This document shows positions 721 to 51,735 of a stretch of DNA of 57,881 nucleotides, one piece after another. Within the stretch, counting starts at the first letter, position 1. Every line of letters begins with the position of its first letter. The notes under the pieces were generated by a model that saw only the letters and a list, made by a program, of their open reading frames with translations, made no database searches and had not been told where the DNA came from. Position numbers and translations under genes: made by a program. Origin of the DNA: Candidatus Uhrbacteria bacterium (GTDB taxonomy: Bacteria; Patescibacteriota; Patescibacteriia; JACRJV01); the NCBI GenBank assembly GCA_016215325.1, contig JACRJV010000012.1, positions 1 through 57,881 on the forward strand. Reading direction: 5' to 3'.

Positions 721-1644
721 ATGTCTAAACGTCTCGGAATCGGCGTTGCCATAGGTATTTTCGTTCTCGTTTTTGTTCTTTTGAGTGCCAGGTCGTTACG
801 AAATCCGATCGATGACTCTGATACCACTATAAATGTTGTTGCGTCCTTTTACCCCTTGTATTATTTTGCTTCGGCGATTGCCGGGGACGATGCGACCGTA
901 CACAACCTCACCCCCGCAGGAGTAGAGCCCCACGAGTATGAGCTCACGCCCAATGACATTGTTCTGTTGGAAAACGCCAAGCTTCTGCTGCTCAATGGCG
1001 CTGGCCTTGAGCCATGGGCAAACGATGTAAAGTCTACGCTAGAGGGGAAAGGCGTTGTGATTGTCGACACCAGCGGAGATGTTGCAACCGTAACGACAGA
1101 AGCAGATGGTACGCCCCTCCAAGATCCGCATGGGTGGTTGAGCCCAGTCGCCGCACAGGCACAGGTCGACCGCATTGTCGAAGGATTTGCAAAGGCGGAT
1201 CCGCTCCGCGCCTCCGTTTACCAGCAGCGCGCAAGCGATCTTAAAGTGAAGCTCGCCGCACTCGACCGGCAATATACTCAAGGATTGAAGCAGTGCAATA
1301 AACGGAGCTTTATTACCTCCCACAATGCTTTCGGGTATCTTGCTCGGCAGTACAACCTCAATCAAGTGGCGATTGCGGGCTTTTCTCCGGATGAAGAGCC
1401 GACTGCGAAGGCATTGGCGCGCGTGGCCGATCTGGCGCGGTACTACCAAGTGCGCGTGATTTTTTTTGAAACATTAGTAAGCCCCAAACTCTCCCAGACG
1501 ATTGCCGCCTCTGTCGGTGCGCAGACACTGCCGCTCAATCCCATCGAGGGATTGAGCGAAGCAGAACTTGCACAAGGCAAGGATTATGTGAGCGAGATGC
1601 AAAAGAATTTAGAGAGCTTACGGTTTGCCTTGGAGTGCCGATAA
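721..1644 (+). CDS. Metal (Zn/Mn) ABC transporter substrate-binding protein, ZnuA/TroA family
   Basis: ORF 652..1644. VVASFYPLYYFA...HNLTPAGVEPHEYELTPND...LNGAGLEPW...DPHGWLSP is the classic cluster-9 SBP pattern. The probable start is the ATG at 721 (MSKRLGIGVAIGIFVLVFVLL signal anchor). Confidence 0.85.
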   Translation: MSKRLGIGVAIGIFVLVFVLLSARSLRNPIDDSDTTINVVASFYPLYYFASAIAGDDATVHNLTPAGVEPHEYELTPNDIVLLENAKLLLLNGAGLEPWANDVKSTLEGKGVVIVDTSGDVATVTTEADGTPLQDPHGWLSPVAAQAQVDRIVEGFAKADPLRASVYQQRASDLKVKLAALDRQYTQGLKQCNKRSFITSHNAFGYLARQYNLNQVAIAGFSPDEEPTAKALARVADLARYYQVRVIFFETLVSPKLSQTIAASVGAQTLPLNPIEGLSEAELAQGKDYVSEMQKNLESLRFALECR

Positions 1645-1945
1645 AAAAACTTGTACAAAGGGCGCCCTCTCAGATTCTAAAGGTATTAGTCGAGCGACTC
1701 ATTGCAGATGGGATCTTGCGCACACCCGCATCGCGATGGAAGAGCTCGACAAGCGCAATCGGCGCTGAAGTCAGGTCTACTGGCGCCGGGATTCGTGCAC
1801 GCAGCATGAATCCCGGCTTTTTCTCAAACAAAGAACCGCTCCGATTTGGAGAGGTTCTCACTTCATTGATTTCCTGGGGCCAGCAAGCCTGCCCGCAATG
1901 CTGCGCTCGCATAGCGCTGCAGGCGGGTGAAGGATGTTAGAACTT
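1645..1945 (+). ncRNA. Structured non-coding region X (candidate ncRNA or ribozyme-derived element heading the cassette array)
   Basis: 300 nt between convergent gene ends. Perfect hairpins at 1786-1816 (CCGGGATTC/GAATCCCGG), 1832-1858 (AGAACC/GGTTCT) and 1888-1927 (CCTGCCCGC/GCAGGCGGG). The 3' 40 nt nearly match the tRNA-Thr intron at 50687-50723. The overlapping ORF 1635..1940 has no protein-like features. Confidence 0.35.
1822..1943 (+). repeat. Cassette-junction repeat, copy A (long form with 40-nt hairpin insert)
   Basis: tctcaaacaaag-[hairpin]-cattga..tGGGGCCAGCAAG-[cctgcccgc...gcaggcggg]-tGAAGGATGTTAGAAC. It ends 5 nt before the stop of the minus-strand gene 1948..2634. Confidence 0.7.
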
Positions 1946-1947
1946 AT

Positions 1948-2634
1948 TTAAGGCGATACGTACCCCTTGCGTAGTGGGATATCTTTAAGAAAGTCTTCGA
2001 TCTTCAATTCTGTATGAATGTCTAAACTGTCGCGACTGTTGAGTTCTTCCTCCAATGCTTTCCAAAATTGTTCTAATATTCTGAAGGCATCGGCAGGTTT
2101 CAATACTTTAAAATGAAATTTGAATAGGTAGGTTGCTTGGGCTGTTGAACTATTATCAGGGTAGGCATCCTCAGCCTCTTTTTGAGTGGTGTTTCTGAGC
2201 GCCATTGCTTTTTCCTCTGCCGACCCATTAACTCGTTTGATTGCACTATTGAATAATGTTTCGAGAAAATTTTCTATCTCAATTTTTTCGGTAGTGCTTA
2301 CATTTTTTTCTAGAGAAAGAAGATAAATATGAGCGTCGCGTTCAATTTTTTGATGTGCCAGTTCTTTTGGCCGTTGTTCATATAACATTGATCCATCTAC
2401 TTTAACATGCCCTGTGCACGAAGAGCATGTTTGAGTCTGAGAGTTTGGAAAACGATCTTGTGTAATTCGATTGATCCTTTTCAAAGTAGCTTGTATTGGA
2501 AGCTCACATTCACGTTCGATTTCTTCCCAAAGTGAGCGCTCCGCATCTGATTGGGGCGCCAGGTCTTTGGTAGGTATTGGTGCTCTCCAGGTTGGCTCCG
2601 GGGACATGAGTTTGATTTTAACAGCACTACTCAA
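1948..2634 (-). CDS. Hypothetical protein (cassette 1)
   Basis: 228-aa ORF in a low-GC region, bounded by junction repeats A and B. I recognise no family motif. Confidence 0.55.
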   Translation of the reverse strand: MSSAVKIKLMSPEPTWRAPIPTKDLAPQSDAERSLWEEIERECELPIQATLKRINRITQDRFPNSQTQTCSSCTGHVKVDGSMLYEQRPKELAHQKIERDAHIYLLSLEKNVSTTEKIEIENFLETLFNSAIKRVNGSAEEKAMALRNTTQKEAEDAYPDNSSTAQATYLFKFHFKVLKPADAFRILEQFWKALEEELNSRDSLDIHTELKIEDFLKDIPLRKGYVSP

Positions 2635-2690
2635 AAGAGTATCACATTTCGTACTAAAGGTGTAAACGCAAAGTCAGCTACTTTTTTAAT

Positions 2691-2760
2691 GGTATCAAAA
2701 AATAACCAAAAACCATTGAATGTTCTTTGATGGGGGCCCGCAAGTCGAGGATATTAGAAC
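2691..2760 (+). repeat. Cassette-junction repeat, copy B
   Basis: ggtatcaaaaaataaccaaaaaccattgaatgttctttgatGGGGGCCCGCAAGtcgaGGATATTAGAAC. It shares the extended 5' arm with copy D. The BrnA stop codon lies inside 'ttagaac'. Confidence 0.7.
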
Positions 2761-3071
2761 CTGTCTGCGGTTTCTTTCTCCCCGCACTCCGAATGCCGTA
2801 ATGGTTTTTTCTTCCCATCCATAGATTCTGCAAGAATCACCTTAATATACGACTGGTAGGGAACGTCGCGTTGATTGGCTTGTGATTGAATGCGGGCAAG
2901 GAGATCTTCTGGTAGCCGAATGCTAATAGTTCTCGTAGAAGTTTTGAGGTTTGGGAAGACTGCGTGTTGAGCTTTCGACCAATCCAAATAATCAGCAGAA
3001 TCATGGCTTGCCCAGAACTTGCGTTCTTCTTGTTCGGTTTTAAAATGGGGGATTTTTTTATGCTTGTTCAT
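2754..3071 (-). CDS. brnA: BrnA-like antitoxin (CopG/RHH family)
   Basis: HFKTEQEERKFWASHDSADYLDW...TISIRLPEDLLARIQSQANQRDVPYQSYIKVIL is the typical BrnA pattern. It overlaps brnT by 14 nt. Confidence 0.85.
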   Translation of the reverse strand: MNKHKKIPHFKTEQEERKFWASHDSADYLDWSKAQHAVFPNLKTSTRTISIRLPEDLLARIQSQANQRDVPYQSYIKVILAESMDGKKKPLRHSECGEKETADRF

Positions 3072-3351
3072 AGTGATGGCGTTCCTTTCTGCTCATGTCT
3101 CGAGCAGAGATGATGCGGAGTGATTCTCTACGCATCGTAAAGGAAACAAAGAGTAATCGATCAATATTTGTTTTGCCTAACGCATACCATCGGTGTTCTC
3201 TTGTGGAGTGCAGGGCATCTTCTTGGATAAGGAGGGGAGTATTGAAGAACACCTGCTCACACTCCTCATTGGTCACTTTGTGTTTGGTAATATTTTTTTG
3301 ACTATTCCCACGATCCCATTGAAAACCTTCAATCGTTGAAATATCGAGCAT
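3058..3351 (-). CDS. brnT: BrnT-like toxin (DUF497 ribonuclease)
   Basis: FQWDRGNSQKNITKHKVTNEECEQVFFN...RIISARDMSRKERHHY is the DUF497 signature. It lies upstream of brnA in one operon. Confidence 0.9.
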   Translation of the reverse strand: MLDISTIEGFQWDRGNSQKNITKHKVTNEECEQVFFNTPLLIQEDALHSTREHRWYALGKTNIDRLLFVSFTMRRESLRIISARDMSRKERHHYEQA

Positions 3352-3462
3352 AGTCCCATATAAATTTGTATATTACCATCATATACTATTATTCGGATAT
3401 TGTCAAGTGTCCATAGATCGATCGAAAAACAGTTCCATCAAGGAATCCCTGGAGTTTTTTAT

Positions 3463-3485
3463 CAGGGCCAGCAAGATGTTAGAAC
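3463..3485 (+). repeat. Cassette-junction repeat, copy C (minimal form)
   Basis: caGGGCCAGCAAG-ATGTTAGAAC, 12 nt downstream of the fic stop at 3497. Confidence 0.6.
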
Positions 3486-3496
3486 TTTCGTGCCCA

Positions 3497-4708
3497 CTAT
3501 CTCTTAAAGAGATCAAGATACTCATGCAAAATGAATATCCGATTTCTTGAGAATCCAGTAACCTCCTTAAGAATCCCCACTTTCTCCATTTCTCTGATGA
3601 GCGTATTGGTTGCGCTAATGGAAGTTTTGAGGTGTTTTGATGCTCCAGAGACATTCGTGGCAGGCTTAGAGAATAGTTGTATGAGGAGTGCATGAGCAAG
3701 TTTTGCCCTTCGGCCCAGTTCAAAGATTTTTTTTTCGTAACTTGCCCTTAGACTAATGATTTTTTCAAATGTGTCCTCACTCTTTTTTGCTGTTTCAATG
3801 ACAGCAGAAAGAAAAAAAATTAACCATTGGTCAAGGTCATTACGTTCACGAACGAACGTAAGAGCATCATAGTATTTTGCCTTGTTTTTTTCAAAGAAAT
3901 CGGAAAGATAGAGTGTTGGTTTTTTTAGGATTCCCATTTCGATAAGGTGGAGTGAAATTAGCATACGCCCAACACGTCCATTCCCATCGTTAAACGGATG
4001 GATTGTTTCAAACTGATAATGGGATATTGCAATTTTAATCAGGTTGGGCATGTTGAGTCCTTTATTGTGCCAGAAAAATTCCAAATCCTTTAACATGTCA
4101 GGAAGATCATCTGGGTGTGGGGGAATGAATCCTGCGGTCTGGATATTCGTACCCCCAATCCAGTTTTGGGCTATTCGAACCTCGCCGGGTTGTTTGTGTT
4201 CGCCCCGGACTCCAGAAAGTAAAATTCGATGAGCGACGTTTAGTAATCGCATACACACTGGAAGTTTTCTTAGTTGGGCAATTGAGTAATTTGTTGCTTT
4301 AATGTAGTTTTGAACTTCAGTCCAGTCATCTCGTTTTTCGGGGGAGATTTCTTCTTTTGGTAACACCGCTTCGTCCATTCCCGTACGAGTGCCCTCAATG
4401 CGACTCGATTTCACTGCTTCATTACGTACGTGCATTTGGATGAAGAAATCAACATCGGGTACCAAAAGAGAATAGGCATTGAGCTCGCCCACTAGGCGTA
4501 TCGCCTCTTCAAGGAGAACGGGGATTCTTTTATCTTGCCATTCGTAGGGCTGATTCACCAGAGACGGGGAGAAGCTACGGTATTCGTACTCTTTTCCCCA
4601 GAAATGTTTCGTGTAGGTTCCGGCACTAAAGTTATTTTGGAGTTTGGGCATATGATACAAAGTAGGGTTTGATATATCTATATTACTAGATTGAGCCGAA
4701 AGTTGCAA
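3497..4708 (-). CDS. Fic family protein (AMPylase-type Fic domain, C-terminal wHTH)
   Basis: Contains [14 protein letters not shown], which matches the Fic motif HxFx(D/E)GNGRxxR. The N-terminal region is Fic_N-like. The track start is a TTG at 4708; an alternative ATG lies at 4651 (MPKLQNN). Confidence 0.9.
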
Positions 4709-4761
4709 TATGGAAATTTATATTACGACTTGTAATAGAAAGGTTCTACTATCCCGTTCTT

Positions 4762-4830
4762 GGTATCAAAAAACACCCAATAAACATTGGATGTTCTTCG
4801 ATGGGGCATCTTTACGACTCCGCTCGAACC
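4762..4830 (+). repeat. Cassette-junction repeat, copy D (degenerate 3' half)
   Basis: ggtatcaaaaaacacccaataaacattggatgttcttcgatGGGGCatctttacgactccgctcGAAC. The first ~45 nt align with copy B. Confidence 0.55.
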
Positions 4831-5289
4831 TATTTTCAATCAAATCTCCCGACGAAGTCGGGTCGATTGCGGAGGCCTGTACAAGCCATGCGTTTGGATC
4901 AGAGTATTACTAAGGACGACTATGACAGAAAGTTGCAAGAGCTGAAAGATGAACAGTATCGCCTCAACAATGAGCTAGAAGAACACACCAAGGCAGACCA
5001 CAATTATTCTATCCATGTATCTACAGTGTTTGATCTCTGTCGCAGGGTTAAGGAAATTTTTGTGAGTTCTAAAACAACAGAGAAACGTGCGCTTTTGAAC
5101 TACCTACTTCAGAACCCAGTTGTTGAAGGCAAGAAATTTGAGTTTTCGTTAAAATCTCCTTTTGATTTAGTGCTTTCCCTCGCTTCTGAACAAAGCAAAA
5201 GCAGGGCTTTAAACCCTGCTCGTACAACTTGGGGCCAGCAAGTGAAGGATGTTAGAACTTGTCTGGTTGCTTTACAGATGACCCAGTAG
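4801..5289 (+). pseudogene. 3' fragment of a large serine recombinase gene (catalytic and zinc-ribbon domains missing)
   Basis: ITKDDYDRKLQELKDEQYRLNNELEEHTKADHNYSIHVSTVFDLCRRVKEIFVSSKTTEKRALLNYLLQNPVVEGKKFEFSLKSPFD matches the C-terminal coiled-coil tail of large serine recombinases as I recall it. There is no resolvase domain upstream. The ORF tail reads through junction repeat E. Confidence 0.55.
5185..5258 (+). repeat. Cassette-junction repeat, copy E (long form lacking the 40-nt hairpin)
   Basis: ttctgaacaaag-[AGCAGGG cttt aaa CCCTGCT hairpin]-..ttGGGGCCAGCAAG-TGAAGGATGTTAGAAC. It is collinear with copy A, with a compensatory hairpin and a precise absence of 1888-1927. Confidence 0.7.
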
Positions 5290-5493
5290 ATCTTCCACCG
5301 TCCAATCAATATCCTCGAGAATTCCTTTGAGTGTTCCGTTAGGTATATCGCGTGTATGCATGGGGATGACGCTCATCCGACCGTCGATATGTCGCAGGAT
5401 AATATGGCTGCCGCGCTGGCGATCAACGAAAAAGCCTTGTCGCTGCAAGGCCTTGATAAGTTTCTTTGGTGTTACCACGGGTAACTTAGGCAT
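5272..5493 (-). CDS. hicA: HicA-like mRNA interferase toxin
   Basis: MPKLPVVTPKKLIKALQRQGFFVDRQRGSHIILRH...IPMHTRDIPNGTLKGIL is the HicA/YcfA pattern. I placed the start at the internal ATG 5491-5493, which overlaps the hicB end. Confidence 0.8.
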   Translation of the reverse strand: MPKLPVVTPKKLIKALQRQGFFVDRQRGSHIILRHIDGRMSVIPMHTRDIPNGTLKGILEDIDWTVEDLLGHL

Positions 5494-5749
5494 ACTCTCG
5501 TTGTTGAATTTTAGATCGTTGTTTTGCCTTTTCAACAAACACTGTTGTAAACGATTCGAAACTTTGTTCTTCGGGGATGGATTTTCCGTTCTCCATAAGT
5601 GATTCGAGATAGACACCCACCGCCTCTTGGAGGTGTTTTTTTGTTTCAGGGATTGTTTTTCCCCAAGTATGACAACCCTTCAAGGATGGGACGTATCCAT
5701 GGAATCCTTTTGTGTCTGGTTCGATAATGATGCGATAGGTGTGATTCAT
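5486..5749 (-). CDS. hicB: HicB-like antitoxin
   Basis: YRIIIEPDTKGFHGYVPSLKGCHTWGKTIPETKKHLQEAVGVYLESL matches the HicB N-terminal fold signature. It sits immediately upstream of hicA. Confidence 0.8.
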   Translation of the reverse strand: MNHTYRIIIEPDTKGFHGYVPSLKGCHTWGKTIPETKKHLQEAVGVYLESLMENGKSIPEEQSFESFTTVFVEKAKQRSKIQQREYA

Positions 5750-5798: not shown

Positions 5799-5848
5799 GT
5801 GGGCCGGCAAGACTATATTCTGTAGCTTTAGCGTAGGAGGGTTAGAAT
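5799..5848 (+). repeat. Cassette-junction repeat, copy F (distal end of the array)
   Basis: gtGGGCCGGCAAGactatattctgtagctttagcgtaggaggGTTAGAAT. It lies upstream of hicB at the switch from low to high GC. Confidence 0.5.
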
Positions 5849-5862
5849 CATTATTCTCGCCG

Positions 5863-5892
5863 TTGGACATTTGGATAAAGTTGTGGCATAAT
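5863..5892 (+). promoter_or_regulatory. Candidate sigma70-type promoter
   Basis: TTGGAC, 18-nt spacer, TGg-CATAAT (extended -10). It is followed by AAGGAGG and the ATG at 5938. Confidence 0.4.
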
Positions 5893-5937
5893 ATAGAATT
5901 GCAGAACGCAGATCGGTGAACAAAGGAGGAATTTCAA

Positions 5938-6357
5938 ATGGAATGGAGACCGATTTGGGGCTTCGGTGGATACGGTGACGACGATGAGGAATCGTCGAGT
6001 CCGTTTCTACCGGACTCATCCGCCGCCCCTGCACCAGTCGCGTCAAGCGAATTCGATGCGGAGGGGGAGGCTCCGGCTGGCCCTCCGAAGCCTCGGTGGA
6101 ATCGCTACGATCCCATGCCGAACAGCAGACTGTTCAACCTGCCCGCCGTGCGCATGCAGAAGACGACCGACCAAGACAGCAACCTCACATGCAGCCGGGC
6201 CGGATGCACACGGGAGGCCTGGATGAAGTCCGTCGGGCTCAAGGTTGAGCTACGCCACTGCAACAGCGGTAAGCACAACGCCGCTGTCACGCGTCAGTTC
6301 CTCAACCAGGTGGCCGAGGAGGGTAAGTTGAGGGACCTCAAGACTCAGAGGGACTAA
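5938..6357 (+). CDS. Hypothetical protein (high-GC, acidic/Pro-rich N-terminus, Cys/His-containing C-terminus)
   Basis: 139-aa ORF with a strong SD (caaaGGAGGaatttcaaATG). GC is clearly above that of its neighbours. No family recognised. Confidence 0.5.
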   Translation: MEWRPIWGFGGYGDDDEESSSPFLPDSSAAPAPVASSEFDAEGEAPAGPPKPRWNRYDPMPNSRLFNLPAVRMQKTTDQDSNLTCSRAGCTREAWMKSVGLKVELRHCNSGKHNAAVTRQFLNQVAEEGKLRDLKTQRD

Positions 6358-6591
6358 TCCGCGCATCGCGAGATGCGCTCCAATCTTCTCAACGAGAGGA
6401 GGTGAAATCATTCGAACTCGAACGACCAAGGGCAGTCGGCGTCCTAACCCGTGGGTACTCCCACGGCATCCCTACGGCGTCGGGACGCCTTCAGAGAAGC
6501 GGTGCTGGAAAGGACCCAAGAACCGCTGCACGTGCCGGTATCATATGATCGTCTACTCAAGCGACGGTCGTCCATCGAAGGTCTTTCTTTT

Positions 6592-6873
6592 TCACTGACG
6601 CACTCGCTGAGCAACAATGGTGAGCATCATGGCAACATCCGGGGAGCAGTGTTCCTTTTTGAGAGTGATTTGTTTTGTATTAAGTAGCCGTTCGGCTTTT
6701 TGTAACTCATCCGCGAACGCTCCGGTCATGGATACCACGTCGTTAAAGTCGAGGATTACTTCGCCAGGATGATCGGCCAGGATTATATCACGGAGTTTTA
6801 TCGCCATATGCCGGCCCCAGCAGGAAGAGCCGATCAACGCTTGCACATGATATATTTTAGCGGAGGATGTCAT
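6592..6873 (-). CDS. STAS-like (DUF4325-type) small protein
   Basis: MAIKLRDIILADHPGEVILDFNDVVSMTGAFADELQKA resembles the DUF4325/STAS-like pattern (..V.LDF.GV...s.sFadE). The start is uncertain (ATG at 6873 or 6807). It overlaps the upstream ATPase stop. Confidence 0.55.
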   Translation of the reverse strand: MTSSAKIYHVQALIGSSCWGRHMAIKLRDIILADHPGEVILDFNDVVSMTGAFADELQKAERLLNTKQITLKKEHCSPDVAMMLTIVAQRVRQ

Positions 6874-7609
6874 AGAGGTTGATGGATTGTTGCGGCAAGG
6901 GGGATTGAAGGTGCGCAATTGTTCCTTGCCAAAAGAAGGGAAGTGCATGACATTCGATTACGTCATGATGAGCACGCAGTGCCGCGGATGCGGAAATGAG
7001 CCACAGTTCTCCGTTGAAGAGTTGGGTTATTGCCCTTTGAATGCTGGGCAATCCAGTGCCCCGTTCTTCCACGGTTTTTGTGGAGATGCCGTTGAGTGCC
7101 TTGCGGAGCGCCTCACATTCATCGCTGACTGCGATATGTGACTGCCGGTAGGCGTTGGGGATGGAAACCCCCATGTCCGCGACGGTGAGAGAAAATCGTT
7201 CTTGTCCTAGCGCCGAGGTCGCGATGCCCAATGGTGTCTGCGCATGTTCATGCAGATTGTCGATCAGTTCTCCGATGATGTACAAGATGGTTGTGCGAAT
7301 ATCGGGTCGAATTTTTTCTAGAGGGGCAAGTGTTTGTTCCAAGAGATTAGTTGCATTTTCAGACGGATCGATCAGCACCCCCTGCGTGTGTTCGGCAGTG
7401 ATCTGAATAAGATATCCTTCCCGCTGTTTTTGTTGGCTTAGCAGTGTTGTGAGTGCTGGGAGGAAAGAAAGCGGATCGCGGTGAGCATCAATAGTGATCC
7501 AGTGTTCCTCATTGCGCCGTAGCGATTGGAACTGTTCAGTGAGTCGTTGGAGTTCTTTCAGTGTCTCTTCGAGCGTGTTGTGTTCTGGAACGACACAGGT
7601 GATTTCCAT
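6857..7609 (-). CDS. GHKL/HATPase_c ATP-binding protein (RsbW/SpoIIAB-like)
   Basis: N-box IIGELIDNLHEHA, G1 VADMGVSIP and G2 ERGTGLPSI are present. The track ORF 6857..7711 runs into tRNA-His, so the real start is most likely the ATG at 7609 (MEITCVVPEH). Confidence 0.7.
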   Translation of the reverse strand: MEITCVVPEHNTLEETLKELQRLTEQFQSLRRNEEHWITIDAHRDPLSFLPALTTLLSQQKQREGYLIQITAEHTQGVLIDPSENATNLLEQTLAPLEKIRPDIRTTILYIIGELIDNLHEHAQTPLGIATSALGQERFSLTVADMGVSIPNAYRQSHIAVSDECEALRKALNGISTKTVEERGTGLPSIQRAITQLFNGELWLISASAALRAHHDVIECHALPFFWQGTIAHLQSPLPQQSINLYDILR

Positions 7610-8050: not shown

Positions 8051-9052
8051 CTATCTTTTATCTTCTCGGCGTTTCCCGTGGAATGCTTGATGTACTTCTT
8101 TTAAATGTTGGTCAGTAACATGGGTATAAATTTGCGTGGTGGTGATTGAGGCATGCCCGAGCAGGGTTTGCACGGCGCGGATATCGGCGCCACCGCGCAA
8201 AAGATCAGTGCCAAAGCTGTGGCGGAGCGTATGCGGCGTGATGCGTTTAGTGATCCCTGCGATGCGCGCATACCGCGATACAATACGCTCGATCGATCGC
8301 GGCGTCAACGGTTGCTCGATTTGAGATTTGAGATTTGAGATTTGAGATTGCTCGGCCGCGGGGTCGTGGCGCACAAAGACAAAGGGTGATGGGTCAGTGC
8401 GCGTATCAAGATAGCATTGGAGCGCTTGTTTTGCCGAGCTTGACAAAAAAACGACACGAATTTTCCCACCCTTGCCCCGGACCGAGAATTCATCGCGTTT
8501 GAGATTGATTTGATCGCGGTTAAGGTTAGCCAATTCCGCCACCCGTAGTCCGGTGGAAAAAAGTGTTTCCAGCATCGCTTTGTCGCGCAGTCGGATCAGA
8601 GTAGCATGTGCTCGGAGTTTCGGATTTCGGATTTCGGATTTCGGATCTTCTCGATTCGAGGGTGCTGCTAGCAGCCGCGCTAATTCACGATCTTCTAGTA
8701 CGCTCACATGTCGTTCTTCCATTTTACCCAGTTCAATTTTTTCTGGTGTCAGTGATTTAATATCTTCGCGCGCAAGATATTTGAGGAATGCGCGCAACGC
8801 GATCATGTGGTAATTGAGCGTATTCACCTTGAGCTCTTCGCCGAATCGGTTCCGCAATTGTTTGAGCCAGACGCGGTATTCATGGACAAGGGCTGCCGAA
8901 ATTTGTTTGGGTTCTTGCAGGTTGTGTTTCGCTGCCCATAACAAAAAACGATGCAGATAATATTCGTACGTTCGGATGGTTTGCAGTCGGCGGTTCTTTT
9001 CGACAGAGCAATATTCCAGGAACCGCTTTACGAGGTTCTCCAGCGTCGTCAT
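8051..9052 (-). CDS. Tyrosine site-specific recombinase, XerC/XerD-integrase family
   Basis: It has an N-terminal SAM-like domain (VKRFLEYCSVEKNRRLQTIRTYEYYL). The catalytic motifs are ..LFSTGLRVAEL.. and HTLRHSFGTDLLRGGADIRAVQTLLGHASITTTQIYTHV. Confidence 0.85.
   Translation of the reverse strand: MTTLENLVKRFLEYCSVEKNRRLQTIRTYEYYLHRFLLWAAKHNLQEPKQISAALVHEYRVWLKQLRNRFGEELKVNTLNYHMIALRAFLKYLAREDIKSLTPEKIELGKMEERHVSVLEDRELARLLAAPSNREDPKSEIRNPKLRAHATLIRLRDKAMLETLFSTGLRVAELANLNRDQINLKRDEFSVRGKGGKIRVVFLSSSAKQALQCYLDTRTDPSPFVFVRHDPAAEQSQISNLKSQIEQPLTPRSIERIVSRYARIAGITKRITPHTLRHSFGTDLLRGGADIRAVQTLLGHASITTTQIYTHVTDQHLKEVHQAFHGKRREDKR
8318..8348. repeat. Heptanucleotide tandem repeat (ttgagat x4.4) inside the recombinase CDS
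   Basis: Read directly at 8321-8348 as four perfect ttgagat units. It encodes SQISNLKSQIS on the minus strand. Confidence 0.9.
8613..8648. repeat. Heptanucleotide tandem repeat (cggattt x about 4-5) inside the recombinase CDS
   Basis: Read directly as cggagtt t cggattt cggattt cggattt cggatct. It encodes PKSEIRNPKSEIRNPK. Confidence 0.9.
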
Positions 9053-9284: not shown

Positions 9285-9659
9285 ATGCTCTCCAAAAAGA
9301 GTAAAGATAAAGTTATACAGAAGTTTAAGACGCACCCGAACGATACCGGTTCGAGCGAGGTCCAAATCGCCATCTTGAGCGAGGAAATCCGGGAACTCAC
9401 TGAACATCTTAAAACGCATAAAAAAGATTTTTCTTCTCGCAGGGGGTTACTCAAAAAGGTCATGATGCGTCGAAAACTTTTGCGCTATCTCGAGAGCGAA
9501 AGCATCGAACGTTTCGAGTCACTCGTTAAGCGCCTCAAGCTCAAGATCTCTCGTACGCCACAGCAAGACGCTGCCGCATTGGATGAAGTGATTGCAGCCG
9601 ATTCCGATGCTGTCGGCGCGACCGAGCAACCGGTCGAAAAAACCGAAGAGACGGTATAA
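9285..9659 (+). CDS. rpsO: 30S ribosomal protein S15 with a ~35-aa C-terminal extension
   Basis: [50 protein letters not shown] is conserved uS15 sequence. Confidence 0.9.
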
Positions 9660-9669
9660 CCAAAGCAGT

Positions 9670-10179
9670 ATGTTTAAACATCCGGAACAGCGCGTTGGGG
9701 TTTTTGTGGACGTGGGCAACATGTACCACTCCGCAAAGAATCTTCATAATGCGAAAGTCAATTTTAAAGAAGTGCTAAAGGCGGCTGTTTCGGATCGTAA
9801 ATTGGTTCGCGCTATTGCCTACGTGATTAACTCCAAAGCCCAAGAAGAACAGAAATTTTTTGAAGCATTAGATAACCAAGGATTTGAGGTGCGGATGAAA
9901 GACCTGCAAGTGTTCTTGGGGGGCAACAAGAAAGGGGATTGGGATGCGGGCATGGTGGTGGACGTCATTAAATTGGCGCCGAAGCTGGATGTGGTTGTAT
10001 TGGTGACGGGTGACGGCGACTTTGCTCCGCTGGTTGAATATCTCCAGGCGCATGGCACATTGGTAGAGGCTATTGGCTTCCGCGAAACAACATCGGCAAG
10101 ACTCATCGAAACCGCAGATGACTACACCGACCTTTCTGATCCGAATAACGGCGGTCGACGGAGATTTTTATTGCGCTAA
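9670..10179 (+). CDS. NYN/LabA-like (DUF88) domain protein
   Basis: VGVFVDVGNMYHSAKN...RAIAYV...KKGDWDAGMVVDV...VVLVTGDGDFAPLVEYLQAHG is the NYN pattern. I placed the start at the ATG at 9670, not the track's 9592, which overlaps rpsO. Confidence 0.8.
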   Translation: MFKHPEQRVGVFVDVGNMYHSAKNLHNAKVNFKEVLKAAVSDRKLVRAIAYVINSKAQEEQKFFEALDNQGFEVRMKDLQVFLGGNKKGDWDAGMVVDVIKLAPKLDVVVLVTGDGDFAPLVEYLQAHGTLVEAIGFRETTSARLIETADDYTDLSDPNNGGRRRFLLR

Positions 10180-11607: not shown

Positions 11608-14598
11608 ATGAACCTTTACAAGTCGGTTTCCGTTTCCATTTTGGTCTGTGCTGTTACCGGGAGCGGTTGGTGCCAGACTACGAGCACGATTGATCTCCAC
11701 CGCGGGGTCAATATTGTTGCACTCGAACGGCAAGATCCTCGGCTCGCGACCATCGATGATCTCTGCGGTCGTACCGGTTCTCCGTTTGTGGCGATTGCTC
11801 AAGGGCAGCGTTGGCAGACGATTGTGCGTTTTTCCGATGCGGCACAATCGATGCGACTCTCTGGCAATCAAGGGTATGTGGTGGTCAGTTCTCGAGCGCG
11901 CACGATTGCGCTGACCGGCAGTCCGTGGGGGACCGAGGCGTTGACGATTCGTCCGCACCAAGGCCTCATGTTGTTTGTGCATCAGAGACCGAACAACGCA
12001 TCAGCCGGAGAGATCGTCGATGCGTTGGCGGCGACGGCGTTGTTGCGCGTTCGTTCCACTGGTACAGGTCTTGGATGGCATCCGATCGCATCCCCATTAT
12101 TGGGAATTATCGGATCCGATCCGCTCGAGCGAGGCGTCGTATATGCGGCGATCCTGCCGAGCGCTGTGGCAACCAGCGTGGTGCTGCCAAACAGCGATCA
12201 ACCGCCGGTAGCGCTTACCAACGATCTGCCGGTTTCGGCAACCGTCGGCACAACGCTCACGTTGGCGAGTCGATCAACCGACGCGGACGATGCGCCTGAG
12301 GCGCTGCGGTATGCATGGTCCGTGCGGTTCGGGCAATCGGCACTGTTGCAATCGACCAATTCCGTGGTCGTGGTGACTCCAACTGCTGTTGGAATCATGG
12401 TTGTCGATCTGGTCGTCACTGATGGATTGGCGCGATCCAATATCCGACAATCCATTGCGATCGCGCAATCCACAACTTCAACCATCAACGAGATCCAAAC
12501 TCCGCTTGGGCCGTTTTCCCTCAATGTCTTCGGGGTGGTTGGCCATCTCCCCCGCGTGCCCGTGAGTGGCAGCCCACTCCCTGACAATCCCAGTGGATAC
12601 CGGATTCGACAGGAAGCGCGCGCCATTGCGTTGCCAACAGGCGTGGAGCAGCTCGGACTCACTCGGGAGTTGGGATACGGTAATATCCCCGACCTCGAGC
12701 GTGATCCCCAGGGAGTGGTGATCCCGCTCCCTCTCCAACTTTCGGTAGAGGCCGGTTTGAGTCAAACTGCCGATTTGCTTGTCGAGTCGTCGGTGGTGAG
12801 CGGATTCGATAGTCCGGCGACCACGACGTTTTCGTACTACGCGTTCACCGACGACGGAGCGAGCACATCGGTGCAGGCAGTGGGCAAGGGCATTGTCCAG
12901 CAGTGGCGGCAGTGGCATACGCAACTGGCCGCTACCGCGCGTCGATTTACCCCCGTGAGTTTGGCGAACCTCGCGAGCAATCGCGTCGGGTATGGGTTTA
13001 CGCGCGTGCATCCAGATACACCACGTGGGCGTCGTCGCCCCGTGTTCCATCTCCATGGTTTTGACCCACGCAGTGAGTTCGCGCCACTGGGCGACACATT
13101 CCTCCGAGCGCAACATCGTTGGGATTCGTTTTTTGGAGTTGCGCGCGACAGTCCTGCGGGAATCTCGCCGAACATTGCGGTGCTCGAAAAAGATTTCGAT
13201 TTTATCCTGCTCACGTACCCGACCACACGACCGATTACTGAAATTGCCGTGCGGTTGGCAGAACTCTATGAGCAGAATATTCCCGAAGACACCGAGGATG
13301 GGGTTGTTATCTGCTATAGCGAAGGCGGCGTTGTGGATATGGCCTGGGAGAACACAATAGTGCGCGGCAAGCGCATTGGCGATCGCATCAAGCACCGCAT
13401 TGCCATCGCGGTGCCGTATCATGGAGCTTCCGTTGCGACCGCGCTCACGAACCGCTACTTTGATGCGCGATTTTTTACGCGCCAAGTGATGCCGCGAGCG
13501 GCATGGCCGCTCTTGCAGTACGGGCTTGTGCCGCCTTCGGATGGGTTGCGCAATTTGCGCTACGACAATTCTTGGAAAACAGGGGACGGCCGCGTTGCAT
13601 ACCCCACCTTGAATCCGTCGCTGAATGCGCTCCACAGCCAAGATGCATTCGCGCAGAGTACAAATGTTTTCTTTCTGGTCGGGGCAACCGAATACGACCT
13701 TCCGTTGCCCAATACAGAAATGGAAACGGCACGCAACGCATTCGTGACCGAAGTGGAGCGTGAATATTCTGATGGCGTGGCATGGACCGAGAGCACAGTG
13801 CCCAAGGACAAGCACGGATCCTCGAAAGGGGACACCGACGAATTTGTCGGTTGGCGAGCCGACGGCACGCTCGATCGCGTTGGAGTGTACTGGGGGTTTG
13901 ATCACCTTCAGATGTTTGAGCATCCAGACGTGATGTGCGCGCTCCACCGGTTGCTGGCCCAGATCAAGGATCGCTCCAATGATCCGCCGGTTGATCTCAC
14001 ACCGGAGTTGATCACACTCAATGTCGGTCAACGTTCGGTTGAGCTCACGCCGTTTGCATCGGCAACCGATGCCAACGGCGATATGATCACGGACCATTGG
14101 ACGTTCTGGCGCACATGGCCGGATCAAGGTCGCGCGCGATGGGACAGCGCGAACAAGACGCTTACCACCACTGGATCATGCAATATGGTGATGAGTCATG
14201 TGGTGGCAGACGGGCGCGGGATGATCGCGCATACGTTCGTGATCGTGTATCGCCCGATGCCACCGGTCGACCCATTTGTGTCCGATGTACCGGGACTGGA
14301 ATTTACGTTGCGGCCCCGGTTTGATCCGCGCCGCAGCGGTAATGTGGTGGAATGGTCGCGCACGCCATCGGGGGGCGTCAGCCAGGACTCGGAAGAGTAC
14401 GATCTGTGGATTGACCTGCGGTCCGATAGCGGCATGGTCCCCAGGGCCAACAACACCAGCGTGTACGGAGCCTATCGCTGGTGGAGCGGGCGCAAACTGT
14501 ACGGAGCATACCAAGGGCCAGCCCTCAATGGCGGTCCGTACCTGTTCTCCAACATCGCCGTTGCAGAGCCGATATCTGTGCATTTGTTGGACCGATAA
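11608..14598 (+). CDS. Large secreted protein with PKD-like repeats and a lipase/esterase-like alpha/beta-hydrolase core
   Basis: Strong SD (AAAGGAGGacggacaATG) and signal peptide MNLYKSVSVSILVCAVTGSGWC. It contains VFHLHGFDPRS...VVICYSEGGVV...VPYHGAS (GxSxG-like elbow) and segments YAWSV..VVDLVVTDG and HWTFW..VVADGRG. GC is about 60%. Confidence 0.6.
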   Translation: MNLYKSVSVSILVCAVTGSGWCQTTSTIDLHRGVNIVALERQDPRLATIDDLCGRTGSPFVAIAQGQRWQTIVRFSDAAQSMRLSGNQGYVVVSSRARTIALTGSPWGTEALTIRPHQGLMLFVHQRPNNASAGEIVDALAATALLRVRSTGTGLGWHPIASPLLGIIGSDPLERGVVYAAILPSAVATSVVLPNSDQPPVALTNDLPVSATVGTTLTLASRSTDADDAPEALRYAWSVRFGQSALLQSTNSVVVVTPTAVGIMVVDLVVTDGLARSNIRQSIAIAQSTTSTINEIQTPLGPFSLNVFGVVGHLPRVPVSGSPLPDNPSGYRIRQEARAIALPTGVEQLGLTRELGYGNIPDLERDPQGVVIPLPLQLSVEAGLSQTADLLVESSVVSGFDSPATTTFSYYAFTDDGASTSVQAVGKGIVQQWRQWHTQLAATARRFTPVSLANLASNRVGYGFTRVHPDTPRGRRRPVFHLHGFDPRSEFAPLGDTFLRAQHRWDSFFGVARDSPAGISPNIAVLEKDFDFILLTYPTTRPITEIAVRLAELYEQNIPEDTEDGVVICYSEGGVVDMAWENTIVRGKRIGDRIKHRIAIAVPYHGASVATALTNRYFDARFFTRQVMPRAAWPLLQYGLVPPSDGLRNLRYDNSWKTGDGRVAYPTLNPSLNALHSQDAFAQSTNVFFLVGATEYDLPLPNTEMETARNAFVTEVEREYSDGVAWTESTVPKDKHGSSKGDTDEFVGWRADGTLDRVGVYWGFDHLQMFEHPDVMCALHRLLAQIKDRSNDPPVDLTPELITLNVGQRSVELTPFASATDANGDMITDHWTFWRTWPDQGRARWDSANKTLTTTGSCNMVMSHVVADGRGMIAHTFVIVYRPMPPVDPFVSDVPGLEFTLRPRFDPRRSGNVVEWSRTPSGGVSQDSEEYDLWIDLRSDSGMVPRANNTSVYGAYRWWSGRKLYGAYQGPALNGGPYLFSNIAVAEPISVHLLDR

Positions 14599-49614: not shown

Positions 49615-50423
49615 GCAATATTGTCATCATCATGGAGATTGTTTTTGTTTTTTCGATCGCTGCGCTGGCGACATTACTTTGGCGCCACCGCGGACATTGG
49701 TTTATCCCATTTGAACAATTGGACCGCCACGAACAAGAATATCATCGGAAGAAAGAATTGGTGGTGCGCAGGGCCGAACGGCAAATGGAAGAATGGTGGT
49801 CAACCATCAAGACTTATGCGCGCCCGATTATCAGCAGCGCCGTGAGTATAACGAAGAGGTGGTATCAGGCATTAATAGAATTGGAACAGCGCTACCGAAA
49901 AAACGTGGAAGCGCTGAAATTAACCGGTCCCCAGAAAGTAGAACGGATTACAACGATGTTGGATGCGGCCGATGCCGAAATGGCAAAGGAAGATTGGGGG
50001 CAGGCCGAGGCGAAATTTATCGAGGTCCTGACGATGCAGAATACCCACTTGCGCGCATACGAAGGGTTAGCCGAAGTGTATTGGAATATGGGTAAATGGA
50101 AAGAAGCGATGGAAACGTACAAATTTGTGGCACGGCTCTTACAGGAGAAAACGCCCATTGGTTATTATCATCGATGGGCGGAAGCGGCAAAAGAATGTGA
50201 GCGGTATTCTCAAGCGATCAAGGCGCTCCAGAAAGCCATCGAGATTGAGCCGAATAACCCCCGCACGCTTGATCTTCTCACAGAGAATGCTATACTGGAT
50301 GGCAATCTTGACCTCGCGAGGGATGCTCTTGAAAAATTGAAAATTGCCAATCCGGAAAATCAAAAAATTGCCGATTTCCAAAAGAGGATCGATGAGACGG
50401 GAGCTCTCGCGTCAACCCTGTAA
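49611..50423 (+). CDS. TPR-repeat protein with N-terminal TM helix
   Basis: IVFVFSIAALATLLW, then TPR-like repeats (AEAKFIEVL..., WKEAMETYKFV..., YSQAIKALQKAIEIEPNN). Confidence 0.7.
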   Translation: MSNIVIIMEIVFVFSIAALATLLWRHRGHWFIPFEQLDRHEQEYHRKKELVVRRAERQMEEWWSTIKTYARPIISSAVSITKRWYQALIELEQRYRKNVEALKLTGPQKVERITTMLDAADAEMAKEDWGQAEAKFIEVLTMQNTHLRAYEGLAEVYWNMGKWKEAMETYKFVARLLQEKTPIGYYHRWAEAAKECERYSQAIKALQKAIEIEPNNPRTLDLLTENAILDGNLDLARDALEKLKIANPENQKIADFQKRIDETGALASTL

Positions 50424-50470
50424 AATGACTGATATTAATTGTTTAGAAGTGCTTCATAGTGATCGAACAT

Positions 50471-50781
50471 GCCGTTGTAGCTCAGCTGGTAGAGCAACTC
50501 CATGGTGGGGACGCAACCCCTGCCCATCCCGATGGTAACATCGGGATGAATCCCGAATAACGGTTAACGGCCGACACACGGTCAAGACCGTGGCCCGACA
50601 TTCGTCAGGGCCCGAACGACTGACAAGGGGACCCAGTAGTGAAATACGGGGTTAATATACAGTCTAGCCCTCTTATAAGTGTTGTCCCTGCCCGCAATGC
50701 TTTCGCATAGCGATGCAGGTGGGTAAAAAGAGGTGTAAGCGAAGGAGTAGGTCCGCGGTTCAATTCCGCGCAACGGCTCCA
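50471..50781 (+). tRNA. tRNA-Thr (GGT) interrupted by a 235-nt intron in the anticodon loop
   Basis: The exons at 50471-50506 and 50742-50781 join to GCCGTTG-TA-GCTCAGCTGGTAGAGC-A-ACTCC-ATGGTAA-GGAGT-AGGTC-CGCGGTTCAATTCCGCG-CAACGGC-T-CCA, a 76-nt cloverleaf with G1-C72 and C2-G71. This is the only splice choice that gives a 7-nt loop with the 5' exon ending in U and the intron ending in G. Confidence 0.8.
50507..50741 (+). ncRNA. Group-I-like intron (no ORF)
   Basis: Inserted after anticodon position 36, as in known bacterial tRNA group I introns. It has a 10-bp hairpin with a GTAA tetraloop (50525-50548). GACTG (50618-50622) and CAGTC (50660-50664) form a P7-like pair, the latter inside an S-element-like AATATACAGTCTAGCC. 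The terminal nucleotide is G. Confidence 0.6.
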
Positions 50782-50793
50782 GATAATTTGATT

Positions 50794-50880
50794 GGGCGGG
50801 TACCGAAGTGGTCAAACGGGGCACGCTGTAGACGTGCTGGCCTTGCGCCTTCGGGGGTTCGAATCCCTCCCTGCCCACCA
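50794..50880 (+). tRNA. tRNA-Tyr (GTA), long variable arm
   Basis: GGGCGGG...GCACG-CTGTAGA-CGTGC-long variable arm-GGGGGTTCGAATCCCTC-CCTGCCC-A-CCA. Confidence 0.9.
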
Positions 50881-50886
50881 CCCCTT

Positions 50887-51735
50887 ATGATCATCGCGGC
50901 GTTTTGGATACTGCGTATTGGCCTGGCAGCAACGCTCATTTATGCCGGAATCGACATGATGATCCAACCCCAGGTGTGGTTGGGTTTTTTCCCTGCATTT
51001 GCGTTGGCGGCAAGTCCGCTCAAAGAGACTCCCACCGTGATCATGCATGGGATTGCCCATATCGTTCTTGCTGTAGGATTATTGTATCCGAAGACCGTGC
51101 GATGGGCTGCGGTTTTCACAGCCTTGCTGTTGATGGGGGTTCTGATTTTTTCGGGTGATTGGTTTGTCACCTTCCGAGACGTCGGTTTGTTGGCAATTGC
51201 CGTGGCGCTTATTGTCTGGCCGAAATCCGTTGCCGAGCCATCGACGCATAACACGCTGCAAGTGGGCGCCATCTGCCTGCGGCCGACATTTAACTCGTTG
51301 GAAGTGTTGTGTGCGCAGCGGACGAGTGATCAGGTCTATTATCCTTCCCAATGGGATTGCGGGGTGGGACGCGCTCGTATGGACGAAACGCTCGAGCAAG
51401 CGGCGGAACGCAAAATTCGTGAATCCTTTGGAGTCGAATCGCGTGCACTAGCGCCAGTGGCGTCGTTCTCATTTTTTCCCACTGGTCGTAAAGTTACTCA
51501 AGGGGTAAAGTACGTTTGCCTTTTTCAAAAGTATCTTAATGGCAAAGGTGTTGCGCTTGATAAAAAAGAGTTTTCGCAATGGCAATGGCTGCCGATCGAA
51601 CAATTGGATGCCGTTGCCTGGATTCAAGGGCGGGAACGAAGCGCCGCAGACGACGTTCGTTCTGCAATCAGTTATTATAAGGCGATGGGAGAGTTTGATC
51701 GGCGCAACGCCCCCGCTGCTCGGTCGCTCGCGTAA
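50887..51735 (+). CDS. Membrane (DoxX-like) N-domain fused to a Nudix-like hydrolase domain
   Basis: I placed the start at ATG 50887 because the track start 50713 overlaps both tRNAs. Four TM helices are followed by GVGRARMDETLEQAAERKIRESFGV, a partial Nudix box (Gx5Ex7R.U..E.G). Confidence 0.6.
   Translation: MIIAAFWILRIGLAATLIYAGIDMMIQPQVWLGFFPAFALAASPLKETPTVIMHGIAHIVLAVGLLYPKTVRWAAVFTALLLMGVLIFSGDWFVTFRDVGLLAIAVALIVWPKSVAEPSTHNTLQVGAICLRPTFNSLEVLCAQRTSDQVYYPSQWDCGVGRARMDETLEQAAERKIRESFGVESRALAPVASFSFFPTGRKVTQGVKYVCLFQKYLNGKGVALDKKEFSQWQWLPIEQLDAVAWIQGRERSAADDVRSAISYYKAMGEFDRRNAPAARSLA

Follow-up and report, generated by a model that had tools for sequence, protein, structure and literature searches.

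The stretch downstream of znuA in a Candidatus Uhrbacteria contig: probably a composite intergenic zone at the head of a cassette array

Between the stop codon of znuA and the first gene of an array of small gene cassettes, the contig analysed here carries 301 nt (positions 1645-1945) with several hairpins, and the question that this locus raises is whether they belong to one RNA. A sequence-only reading had proposed a non-coding RNA, an integration target resembling a transfer RNA (tRNA) or transfer-messenger RNA (tmRNA) gene, or a ribozyme relic. Our results suggest that 1645-1945 is most probably not a single RNA but a composite intergenic zone, made of a remnant of pcm, a predicted terminator, the head unit of the cassette array and a hairpin inserted into that unit. 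The window is the whole of contig C8 (57,881 nt) from source genome G000 (1.14 Mb, 27 contigs, 92.6% complete).

The left bound of the region is the stop codon of znuA (721..1644, + strand; zinc-uptake periplasmic component; Pfam ZnuA 3.7e-78). The nearest relative of the window is a metagenome locus, L010, recovered from a ZnuA scan of metagenome contigs; in all, 160 ZnuA loci were retrieved. Its ZnuA shares 70% protein identity with that of the window, the second-best locus 53%, and the two znuA genes are 69.4% identical over 808 nt. On the left L010 is syntenic with the window, with a carotenoid-synthesis-like gene followed by znuA. The relatives of this ZnuA in public records are mostly labelled candidate-phyla-radiation bacteria. 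Class-wide searches covered 401 genomes of the bacterial class.

Folding, the pcm remnant and the terminator

Taken as a whole, the 301 nt fold better than shuffled sequences on both strands (z -4.47 on the + strand, with 0 of 100 shuffles equally good; z -4.33 on the - strand, with 1 of 100). Segment by segment, with 200 shuffles each, 1780-1830 reaches z -5.86 on the + strand (no shuffle equally good) and 1826-1945 reaches z -3.15 on the + strand and -2.40 on the - strand (1 and 6 shuffles, respectively), whereas 1645-1784 gives z -0.68 on the + strand and +0.16 on the - strand (46 and 108 shuffles). The excess of folding is local: it comes from two modules, the terminator and the 120-nt junction unit, and the left 140 nt are at chance. 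The description of the region as densely structured in the sequence-only reading thus holds for the main hairpins and for the whole fold, but neither for the left 140 nt nor in the sense of one RNA. The inverted 5-mers that it had listed, GGCGC/GCGCC and AGCGC/GCGCT, are present in the sequence; both pairs, together with a segment likened to the R element of group I introns, fall within the chance-level portion, and Rfam at E<=10 gives no intron family to accompany that likeness. They lie in 1728..1784 (no strand assigned), an orphan stretch that has no excess structure, no similarity to L010 and no Rfam match.

Searches for known RNAs were negative. At gathering scores, Rfam reports five tRNAs in the whole window, none of them below position 7600, and ARAGORN finds no tRNA or tmRNA upstream of 7634 and no tmRNA anywhere in the window. 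At E<=10, the interval 1550-2050 has four matches, all unrelated, that score 11.7-16.6 bits where the gathering scores are 42-70, and none of them is an intron, tRNA or tmRNA; over 1550-2050, 50300-51000 and 4700-5300, no family was identified except tRNA. A DNA search of 1600-1950 in 61 relatives had a 40-nt hairpin as its sole match, and 1728-1825 is without counterpart in L010, the sole close relative. Homologous intergenic regions, which had been suggested as a further check, gave no compensatory changes in favour of a structured RNA: 1728-1825 has no equivalent in L010, and for the head unit, which is conserved there, a single relative is too few for covariation to be counted.

It is nevertheless conceivable that the region encodes a genuine small RNA with cooperating hairpins, either an independent one or a structured 3' untranslated region of znuA or of the 228-aa gene on the other side, possibly with a role as a processing or stability element or as an integration-target RNA gene. 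The whole-region z values of -4.5 (+) and -4.3 (-) would agree with this, as would the location of the hairpins, where two convergent transcription units have their 3' regions, and a strand-specific U:G pair in the hairpin at 1888-1927. However, no Rfam, tRNA or tmRNA model matches, the left half folds at chance level and 1728-1825 is unconserved in L010. Moreover, the pieces that are conserved are modules found at every cassette junction or in unrelated genomes; therefore, their conservation is not specific to this locus. We consider a small RNA improbable, and the proposals of a non-coding RNA, a tRNA- or tmRNA-like target and a ribozyme relic find no backing in these searches. Since the candidate resolves into ordinary parts, there is no merit in pursuing it as an RNA.

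The first of these parts is coding debris. In L010, an intact 201-aa gene for protein-L-isoaspartate O-methyltransferase (pcm; PCMT 6.2e-55) begins 6 nt past the znuA stop. At the syntenic position in the window, 1686..1727 on the + strand reads LVERLIADGILRTP, a stub of the pcm N-terminus that shares 11 of 14 residues with the LVKKLIEDGILRTP of L010 Pcm (tblastn). At the nucleotide level the match is 26 of 30, with a local score of 35; the scores of 200 shuffles averaged 13.5 and did not exceed 18. Among 16 Pcm proteins (L010 and 15 other genomes of the class), 10 match 1686-1727, and the motif corresponds to their conserved N-terminus. Past 1727, similarity to L010 pcm or to its downstream spacer is absent (local score 16, shuffle mean 17.9). 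An intact pcm was not found in the source genome, where the Pfam model gives one 23-bit match, to another methyltransferase-sized frame; L010 Pcm used as query has no match there at 1e-10, and the same query matches 15 of 60 relatives. Among the 160 ZnuA loci, pcm adjoins znuA in L010 only. To judge from these similarities, 1686-1727 is the remnant of a pcm gene that once followed znuA, the remainder of which would have been removed by deletion. Part of the region is accordingly decayed coding sequence, a finding that the sequence-only reading had itself named as one that would tell against its proposal. On the - strand, EKKPGFM could be a motif of the Pcm C-terminus, but with E values of 0.2-0.4 it was taken as chance.

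The only open reading frame (ORF) of the region, 1635..1940, reads through the stub. It had been regarded as spurious, and we agree: no Pfam family, the PCMT domain included, and no homologue was detected. Its first 52 residues, compared with proteins of 92-2000 residues, gave 40 candidates, none with E<=10, although this negative is weak evidence because the stub is only 14 residues long.

The second part, 1785..1825 on the + strand, is a terminator-like fold identified by a terminator scan, in which a G+C-rich hairpin (1785-1817) is followed by the T-tail TTTTTCTC. The stem has 14 pairs, 9 of them G-C, and a 5-nt loop, so that the hairpin previously given as a 9-bp stem at 1786-1816 is present and longer than claimed. 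It has a predicted energy of -28 kcal/mol, makes up 86% of the ensemble and accounts for the z of -5.86 given above. The only + strand coding sequence upstream of it is znuA and the pcm stub. A G+C-rich stem-loop that precedes a U-run and follows a gene of the same strand has the make-up of an intrinsic (Rho-independent) terminator, and 1785-1825 would probably terminate transcription. It differs from the typical case in lying 140 nt past the znuA stop and in being absent from L010, and its activity is a prediction. Among the sequencing runs listed as containing the stretch, none is an RNA run.

The head unit and its inserted hairpin

The remainder of the region, 1826..1945 (+), is a junction unit, the first copy (A) of a repeat that separates the cassettes of the array. 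The array is a stretch of low G+C content (0.40-0.44, compared with 0.49-0.56 in its flanks) in which four small sets of genes occupy the - strand: a 228-aa ORF, BrnA/BrnT, Fic and HicA/HicB. The constant parts of the repeat between them are GGGGCCAGCAAG and GTGAAGGATGTTAGAAC, and core boxes lie at 1936, 2753, 3478, 5251 and 5841. When 12 junctions of the window and of L010 are aligned, the units prove to be modular, with an optional left box resembling GTTCTAAC, a hairpin module (ATCAAAAAACACCC ... GGRTGTTYTTYGAT), GGGGCCAGCAAG, an optional inserted hairpin, GTGAAGGAT and the core box GTTAGAAC. Homology between units stops within about 6 nt past the core box and is ragged on the other side.

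In the head unit these modules are the hairpin at 1832-1858, the left box GTTCTCAC at 1854-1861, GGGGCCAGCAAG at 1876-1887, the inserted hairpin at 1888-1927, GTGAAGGAT at 1927-1935 and the core box GTTAGAAC at 1936-1943. The hairpin at 1832-1858, correctly described before as 6+4 bp, is a diverged version of the module found in unit B (2690-2735) and in a partial unit at 4761-4806. Copy A had been considered the fullest junction repeat; its length, the greatest of all copies, is due to an inserted 40-nt hairpin, and its first hairpin module is diverged. Folded as single-stranded DNA, its outer boxes pair and close the structure, and likewise the boxes of the complete L010 unit 14203-14335 close a fold with z -5.22. 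Such closure of 75-180-nt folds by the inverted boxes GTTCTAAC/GTTAGAAC is a property of some units only: the left box is not convincing in units B, C and E, and shuffled sequences fold as well as units B and C do.

Downstream of pcm, at the matching place, L010 also has an array, with the same unit types and other cassettes: ParE/Phd-like genes, a sigma-factor-like gene, DUF433/PIN-like, TrmB-like, HicAB and a pair of STAS and ATPase genes. The window head unit aligns along its length with the L010 head unit (9522-9672); both have an insertion of about 40 nt at the identical position, and both have the letters YTATTT after the box. The two head units share 74% identity over 73 nt, while internal units of the two loci share 84.5% over 71 nt, 93.6% over 47 nt and 100% over 27 nt. 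Therefore, as the divergence of the head units is near that of znuA (69%) while internal units are 85-100% identical, the head unit looks like a resident attachment site. We read it as a site that probably evolves with the chromosome, and the internal units as mobile, exchanged or homogenised. In both loci the HicAB cassette has the same special unit type on its right (unit E of the window and 14852-14907 of L010), which would fit with cassettes carrying their unit on the right side.

Within the 401 genomes of the class, strong matches to the junction unit were found only in the source genome, with weak partial ones in seven genomes (E 6e-4 to 9e-3). Among the 160 ZnuA loci, the three junction motifs occur together in L010 only, and within the source genome the hairpin module is restricted to this array, apart from a weak match at the start of contig C2. 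The distribution across these samples places the junction unit in the lineage of G000 and L010, to which it seems to be confined.

The strongest hairpin of the head unit has another history. 1888..1927 (+), which reads CCTGCCCGCAA...GCAGGCGGG, was previously given as a perfect 9-bp inverted repeat. The hairpin is strong, but the repeat is imperfect, since CCTGCCCGC is not the reverse complement of GCAGGCGGG; in the lower stem of the hairpin CCUGCC pairs with GGCGGG, one of the pairs being U:G, and GC/GC comes next. The same end motifs (CTGCCCGCAA ... GCAGGCGGG) recur in 22 of the 401 genomes, with 1-7 copies each and 42 matches listed, against 0 for a reversed-pattern control. The source genome holds three copies (1888-1927, 50687-50727 of the window and one on contig C22), and a 36-nt form occurs in seven contigs of run X3, a second run of the same study. 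The 31 distinct copies are 33-41 nt long, and their stem runs on into the variable part, where positions 10-15 can pair in 19-26 of the 31 copies each; in slid controls the corresponding counts were 0-10 at nine of 12 positions and 19-23 at the other three. Copies adjoin other small palindromes and, read by eye, some lie inside apparent coding frames. The L010 head unit has a diverged insert at the matching position.

Dispersed copies, conserved ends and a hairpin kept despite sequence change are the features of elements of the repetitive extragenic palindromic (REP) kind, and the 1888-1927 family has all three by comparison of its copies. The likeness to REP sequences, to bacterial interspersed mosaic elements (BIME) and to the palindromic elements of Rickettsia extends to the conserved ends with a variable top, the length of 33-41 nt, the dispersal at 1-7 copies per genome and the location beside small palindromes and in places within apparent coding frames; the low copy numbers of the family set it apart. 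1888-1927 is thus best described as a secondary insertion, as judged from its recurrence, of a small dispersed palindromic element. The available portions of the literature on palindromic elements in the candidate phyla radiation and on integrons or attC sites in Patescibacteria contain no description of this family.

The recurrence of these modules also bears on a last alternative for the folding, namely that the hairpins are functionless features of chance or composition in decayed DNA. The left 140 nt do fold at chance and part of the region is a gene stub, but the terminator reaches z -5.86, the junction unit occurs five times in the window and at least six times in L010, and the hairpin family is present in 22 of 401 genomes with no control matches. 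For 1785-1945 the repeats and controls already contradict this view, which we consider very improbable overall.

Several other copies of the hairpin have peculiar surroundings. At 50471-50782 (+) of the window, about 230 nt of inserted sequence, with the 36-nt hairpin copy at 50687-50727, divide a tRNA-like gene in two: 50471-50505 has the acceptor, D arm and 5' anticodon stem of its 5' part, and about 50744-50782 has the anticodon stem, T arm, acceptor and CCA of its 3' part. ARAGORN does not call this gene, and Rfam gives no intron family and a tRNA match of 18 bits (E 0.64). The copy at C22:92696-92731 (locus L006) is flanked by an 18-nt direct repeat (TCTCAAATCTCAAATCTG) within a continuous-looking coding frame, and that of locus L004 lies within an AT-rich coding-looking frame. 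Hairpins of a different kind, many and small, with CGTCAAACG or CGTTTGACG as loop or core and with varying stems, occur within junction units of L010 (9455-9600, 14270-14320 and 16280-16400); none was found in the window.

Cassettes and internal units of the window

Cassette stops in the window lie 0-13 nt from a core box, and 14 promoter-like sites were observed where 6.5 were expected. Cassette 1 is the 228-aa ORF (1948..2634, -), which stops 4 nt from the core box, matches no Pfam or NCBIfam family and has a promoter-like site at 2666-2638 (-). It is followed by unit B (2690..2762, +), composed of the hairpin module, GGGGGCCCGCAAG and TCGAGGATATTAGAAC, with the 84.5% identity over 71 nt being to L010 12112-12180. 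Cassette 2 (2754..3351, -) encodes the BrnA antitoxin and the BrnT toxin (Pfam CopG_antitoxin 1.2e-32 and BrnT_toxin 1.6e-25), with the brnA stop inside the core box and a promoter-like site at 3406-3378 (11 of 12 matches). Unit C (3437..3487, +) is a short form in which GGGCCAGCAAG is joined straight to ATGTTAGAAC.

Cassette 3 (3497..4708, -) encodes a Fic-family protein (Pfam Fic_N 1e-21 and Fic 1.2e-16). Beyond it, 4737..4806 (+) comprises an inverted core box (GGTTCTACTATCC) and the hairpin module, as seen from inverted and direct repeats (93.6% over 47 nt to L010 12112-12158; nhmmer 3e-15), and is separated from its own right half by about 420 nt of inserted sequence. That right half is unit D (5230..5260, +), with the 28-nt core GGGGCCAGCAAG TGAAGG ATGTTAGAAC (100% over 27 nt to L010 12153-12179). 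An 87-nt repeat with an internal hairpin (CCCGACGAAGTCGGG), present at 4806-4892 and, reversed, at C2:73-160, interrupts the unit between hairpin module (4761-4806) and core (5230-5260). Contig depth in run X1 over 4807-4973 is about three times that of neighbouring bins (24.3 compared with 7-8).

Cassette 4 (5272..5749, -) consists of the HicA toxin and HicB antitoxin (Pfam HicA_toxin 1.6e-16 and HicB_lk_antitox 3.5e-10). Unit E (5800..5850, +), in which GGGCCGGCAAG is followed by a different hairpin and GGTTAGAAT, is the last unit seen in the window and is 80% identical over 56 nt to its L010 counterpart. About 80 nt past a + strand ORF (5938-6357), a G+C-rich inverted repeat at 6434-6494 (+), GGCGTCCTAAC ... 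GTCGGGACGCC, is laid out like an attC site and possibly marks one more cassette site, of another type, past unit E. A STAS/DUF4325-like gene with a HATPase_c gene is found in both loci (6592-7600 in the window and 14930-16204 in L010). In the window the pair sits between the array and tRNA-His without recognisable units; in L010 it is flanked by junction units and is therefore itself a cassette.

Contig C2 has a second small cassette-like stretch (340-1170), in which the hairpin module at 345-389 (nhmmer E 0.07) is followed by a + strand ORF with an in-frame stop; to the eye this ORF is similar to the NYN-like one at 9592-10179 of the window. The stretch ends with the inverted boxes GGTTCTAC (1082) and GGTTAGAAC (1161-1168), where box and 10 nt of flank are identical to L010 14207-14214 in the opposite orientation.

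Direction of the array and comparison with known mobile systems

A resident head unit next to cassettes that differ between two genomes suggests a mechanism, in which the cassettes (toxin-antitoxin, Fic and unclassified genes, mostly with promoter-like sites of their own) would have been added serially by site-specific recombination, with 1826-1945 as the resident chromosomal copy of the array's putative recombination-site unit. The crossover may lie at or just past the core box GTTAGAAC; if so, every cassette would arrive with a unit of its own, and the body of the head unit would remain in place next to the chromosome.

The array could also be read in the other direction. The head unit would then be the last attC of an integron-type array on the - strand, new cassettes would enter at the right end, near 5850-6500, and the region would amount to the oldest attC plus debris. 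An attC site is an imperfect palindrome with inverted core sites (RYYYAAC ... GTTRRRY) and extrahelical bases when folded. All cassette ORFs of the window and most of those in L010 are on the - strand and stop 0-22 nt (in one case 66 nt) before the box, which then reads GTTCTAAC, the usual order of ORF and attC. The hairpin modules also pair better as - strand RNA, where G:U replaces A:C, unit D is followed by a terminator-like hairpin on that strand, and the complete units with inverted end boxes GTTCTAAC...GTTAGAAC span 75-180 nt and close folds such as that of L010 14203-14335. However, in a canonical integron the last attC and its ORF move together, and here the head units of the two loci correspond, down to the position of the insertion, though the adjacent cassettes differ. 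The homology of the units is moreover sharp at the GTTAGAAC side and ragged at the opposite one, and no integron integrase was found (best TIGR02249 match 115 bits, against a cut-off of 265). We therefore regard the head unit as last site as unlikely; within the overall explanation, its role as entry site seems reasonably probable.

Several points weigh against the entry-site reading and the composite zone that includes it. All cassette genes run against the strand on which GTTAGAAC forms the downstream box, which leaves some probability to the opposite reading, with the head unit last. Since there is one close relative only, a single pair of loci has to carry the case for orthology of the head unit. 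Empty sites, excised circles and alternative junctions were not seen, and contigs from three DNA runs contained no joints across cassettes. No dedicated integrase was found in or beside the array, and no integron integrase in a genome that is 92.6% complete, where absence is unproven. Finally, the composite reading leaves 1728-1784 without a source.

Integron arrays include CALIN, clusters of attC sites without an integrase, and these are an obvious comparison. The array shares with them short cassettes, many of them toxin-antitoxin, split by imperfect-palindrome sites; inverted end boxes with ...AAC and GTT... (GTTCTAAC / GTTAGAAC) and variable hairpin centres over about 50-180 nt; a G+C content below that of the host; and a first site that stays fixed next to the chromosome. 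In contrast, no integron integrase, the IntI type with its extra domain, was found to accompany it, several units have a degenerate left box or none, units are built of modules and contain separate inserted hairpins, the genes are antisense to the conserved box, and the first site abuts housekeeping genes instead of intI.

The head copy had also been compared with an intact tRNA or tmRNA gene at the head of a series of islands. The general arrangement stands, as a resident site beside conserved genes heads a series of inserts that each end in a further copy of the site and that differ between the two genomes, but the resident copy is not a tRNA, a tmRNA or any Rfam RNA. Islands of that type target the 3' part of a tRNA or tmRNA gene, and each encodes an integrase of its own. 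The inserts here are, in addition, only 0.6-1.8 kb long and contain toxin-antitoxin, Fic and unclassified genes, with no ORF matching a recombinase family. A tRNA-like reading of the junction repeat itself, whose - strand ends in ...CTTGCTGGCCCCA, was rejected: the layout of T-arm and acceptor is unfit by eye, and ARAGORN and Rfam are silent.

A third comparison is with Xer-dependent modules, namely integrative mobile elements exploiting Xer (IMEX) and the pdif modules of Acinetobacter plasmids, which are small, often encode toxin-antitoxin pairs such as BrnT/BrnA, have short bounding sites and lack an integrase of their own. The modules of the array have all these traits, BrnT/BrnA included. 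In Xer-dependent modules the bounding sites resemble the host dif site, with its 11-6-11 layout, and the host Xer recombinase cuts them. The minimal unit, GGGGCCAGCAAG TGAAGG ATGTTAGAAC, has the 28-nt length of a dif site, and the only complete tyrosine recombinase of the source genome, an Xer-like protein (8051-9052), is located 2.2 kb beyond the array. In contrast to dif sites, the two arms of the 28-nt unit are not inverted copies of each other and their spacing varies between 0 and 46 nt. The minimal unit might be read as a dif-type site, but the results lend this no support.

As a chromosomal dif comparator, a palindrome with such arms was sought in the source genome, and only C22:128779-128806 was found, a perfect palindrome of the form ATTCTAATGTT-TTTAAG-AACATTAGAAT. 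It was rejected as dif since the pattern ATTCTAATGTT-N6-AACATTAGAAT has up to seven copies per genome upstream of genes in relatives and is operator-like. The relatives have ATTCTNATGTTCTYRAGAACATNAGAAT (in G001, on contigs C4, C8, C13, C31 and C39), several copies of which lie shortly upstream of a ribosome-binding-site-like sequence or a start codon, so that it looks like the operator of a conserved regulator.

As to the enzyme, the source genome has two tyrosine recombinases, both Xer-like according to NCBIfam: the complete one just mentioned and one cut by the end of contig C15, upstream of which no junction motifs were found. No serine recombinase domain was detected in the genome. It is tempting to speculate, though we hold it doubtful, that a Patescibacteria lineage possesses an undescribed system that captures cassettes without an integrase of its own, and that the 120-nt head unit would be its resident entry site. 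Stacking would proceed via the 28-nt core (GGGGCCAGCAAG-N6-ATGTTAGAAC), set in foldable hairpin modules, and the acting enzyme would be the Xer-like recombinase instead of an integron integrase. The available portions of the literature on integrons, attC sites and gene cassettes in Patescibacteria and the candidate phyla radiation contain no description of such arrays.

If true, this would amount to an integron-like platform on Xer machinery in an ultra-small genome, with small modules stacked at one site downstream of znuA-pcm. The head unit, conserved beside the same chromosomal genes in two genomes with different cassettes, is a defined candidate attachment site, which may be useful for studying the stacking of toxin-antitoxin cassettes in candidate-phyla-radiation bacteria without a visible integron integrase. 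The 33-41-nt hairpin family, with insertion sites in intergenic DNA, in an interrupted tRNA-like gene and in apparent open coding frames, may in turn mark, in compact form, a palindromic element that moves or recombines in the genomes of this class.

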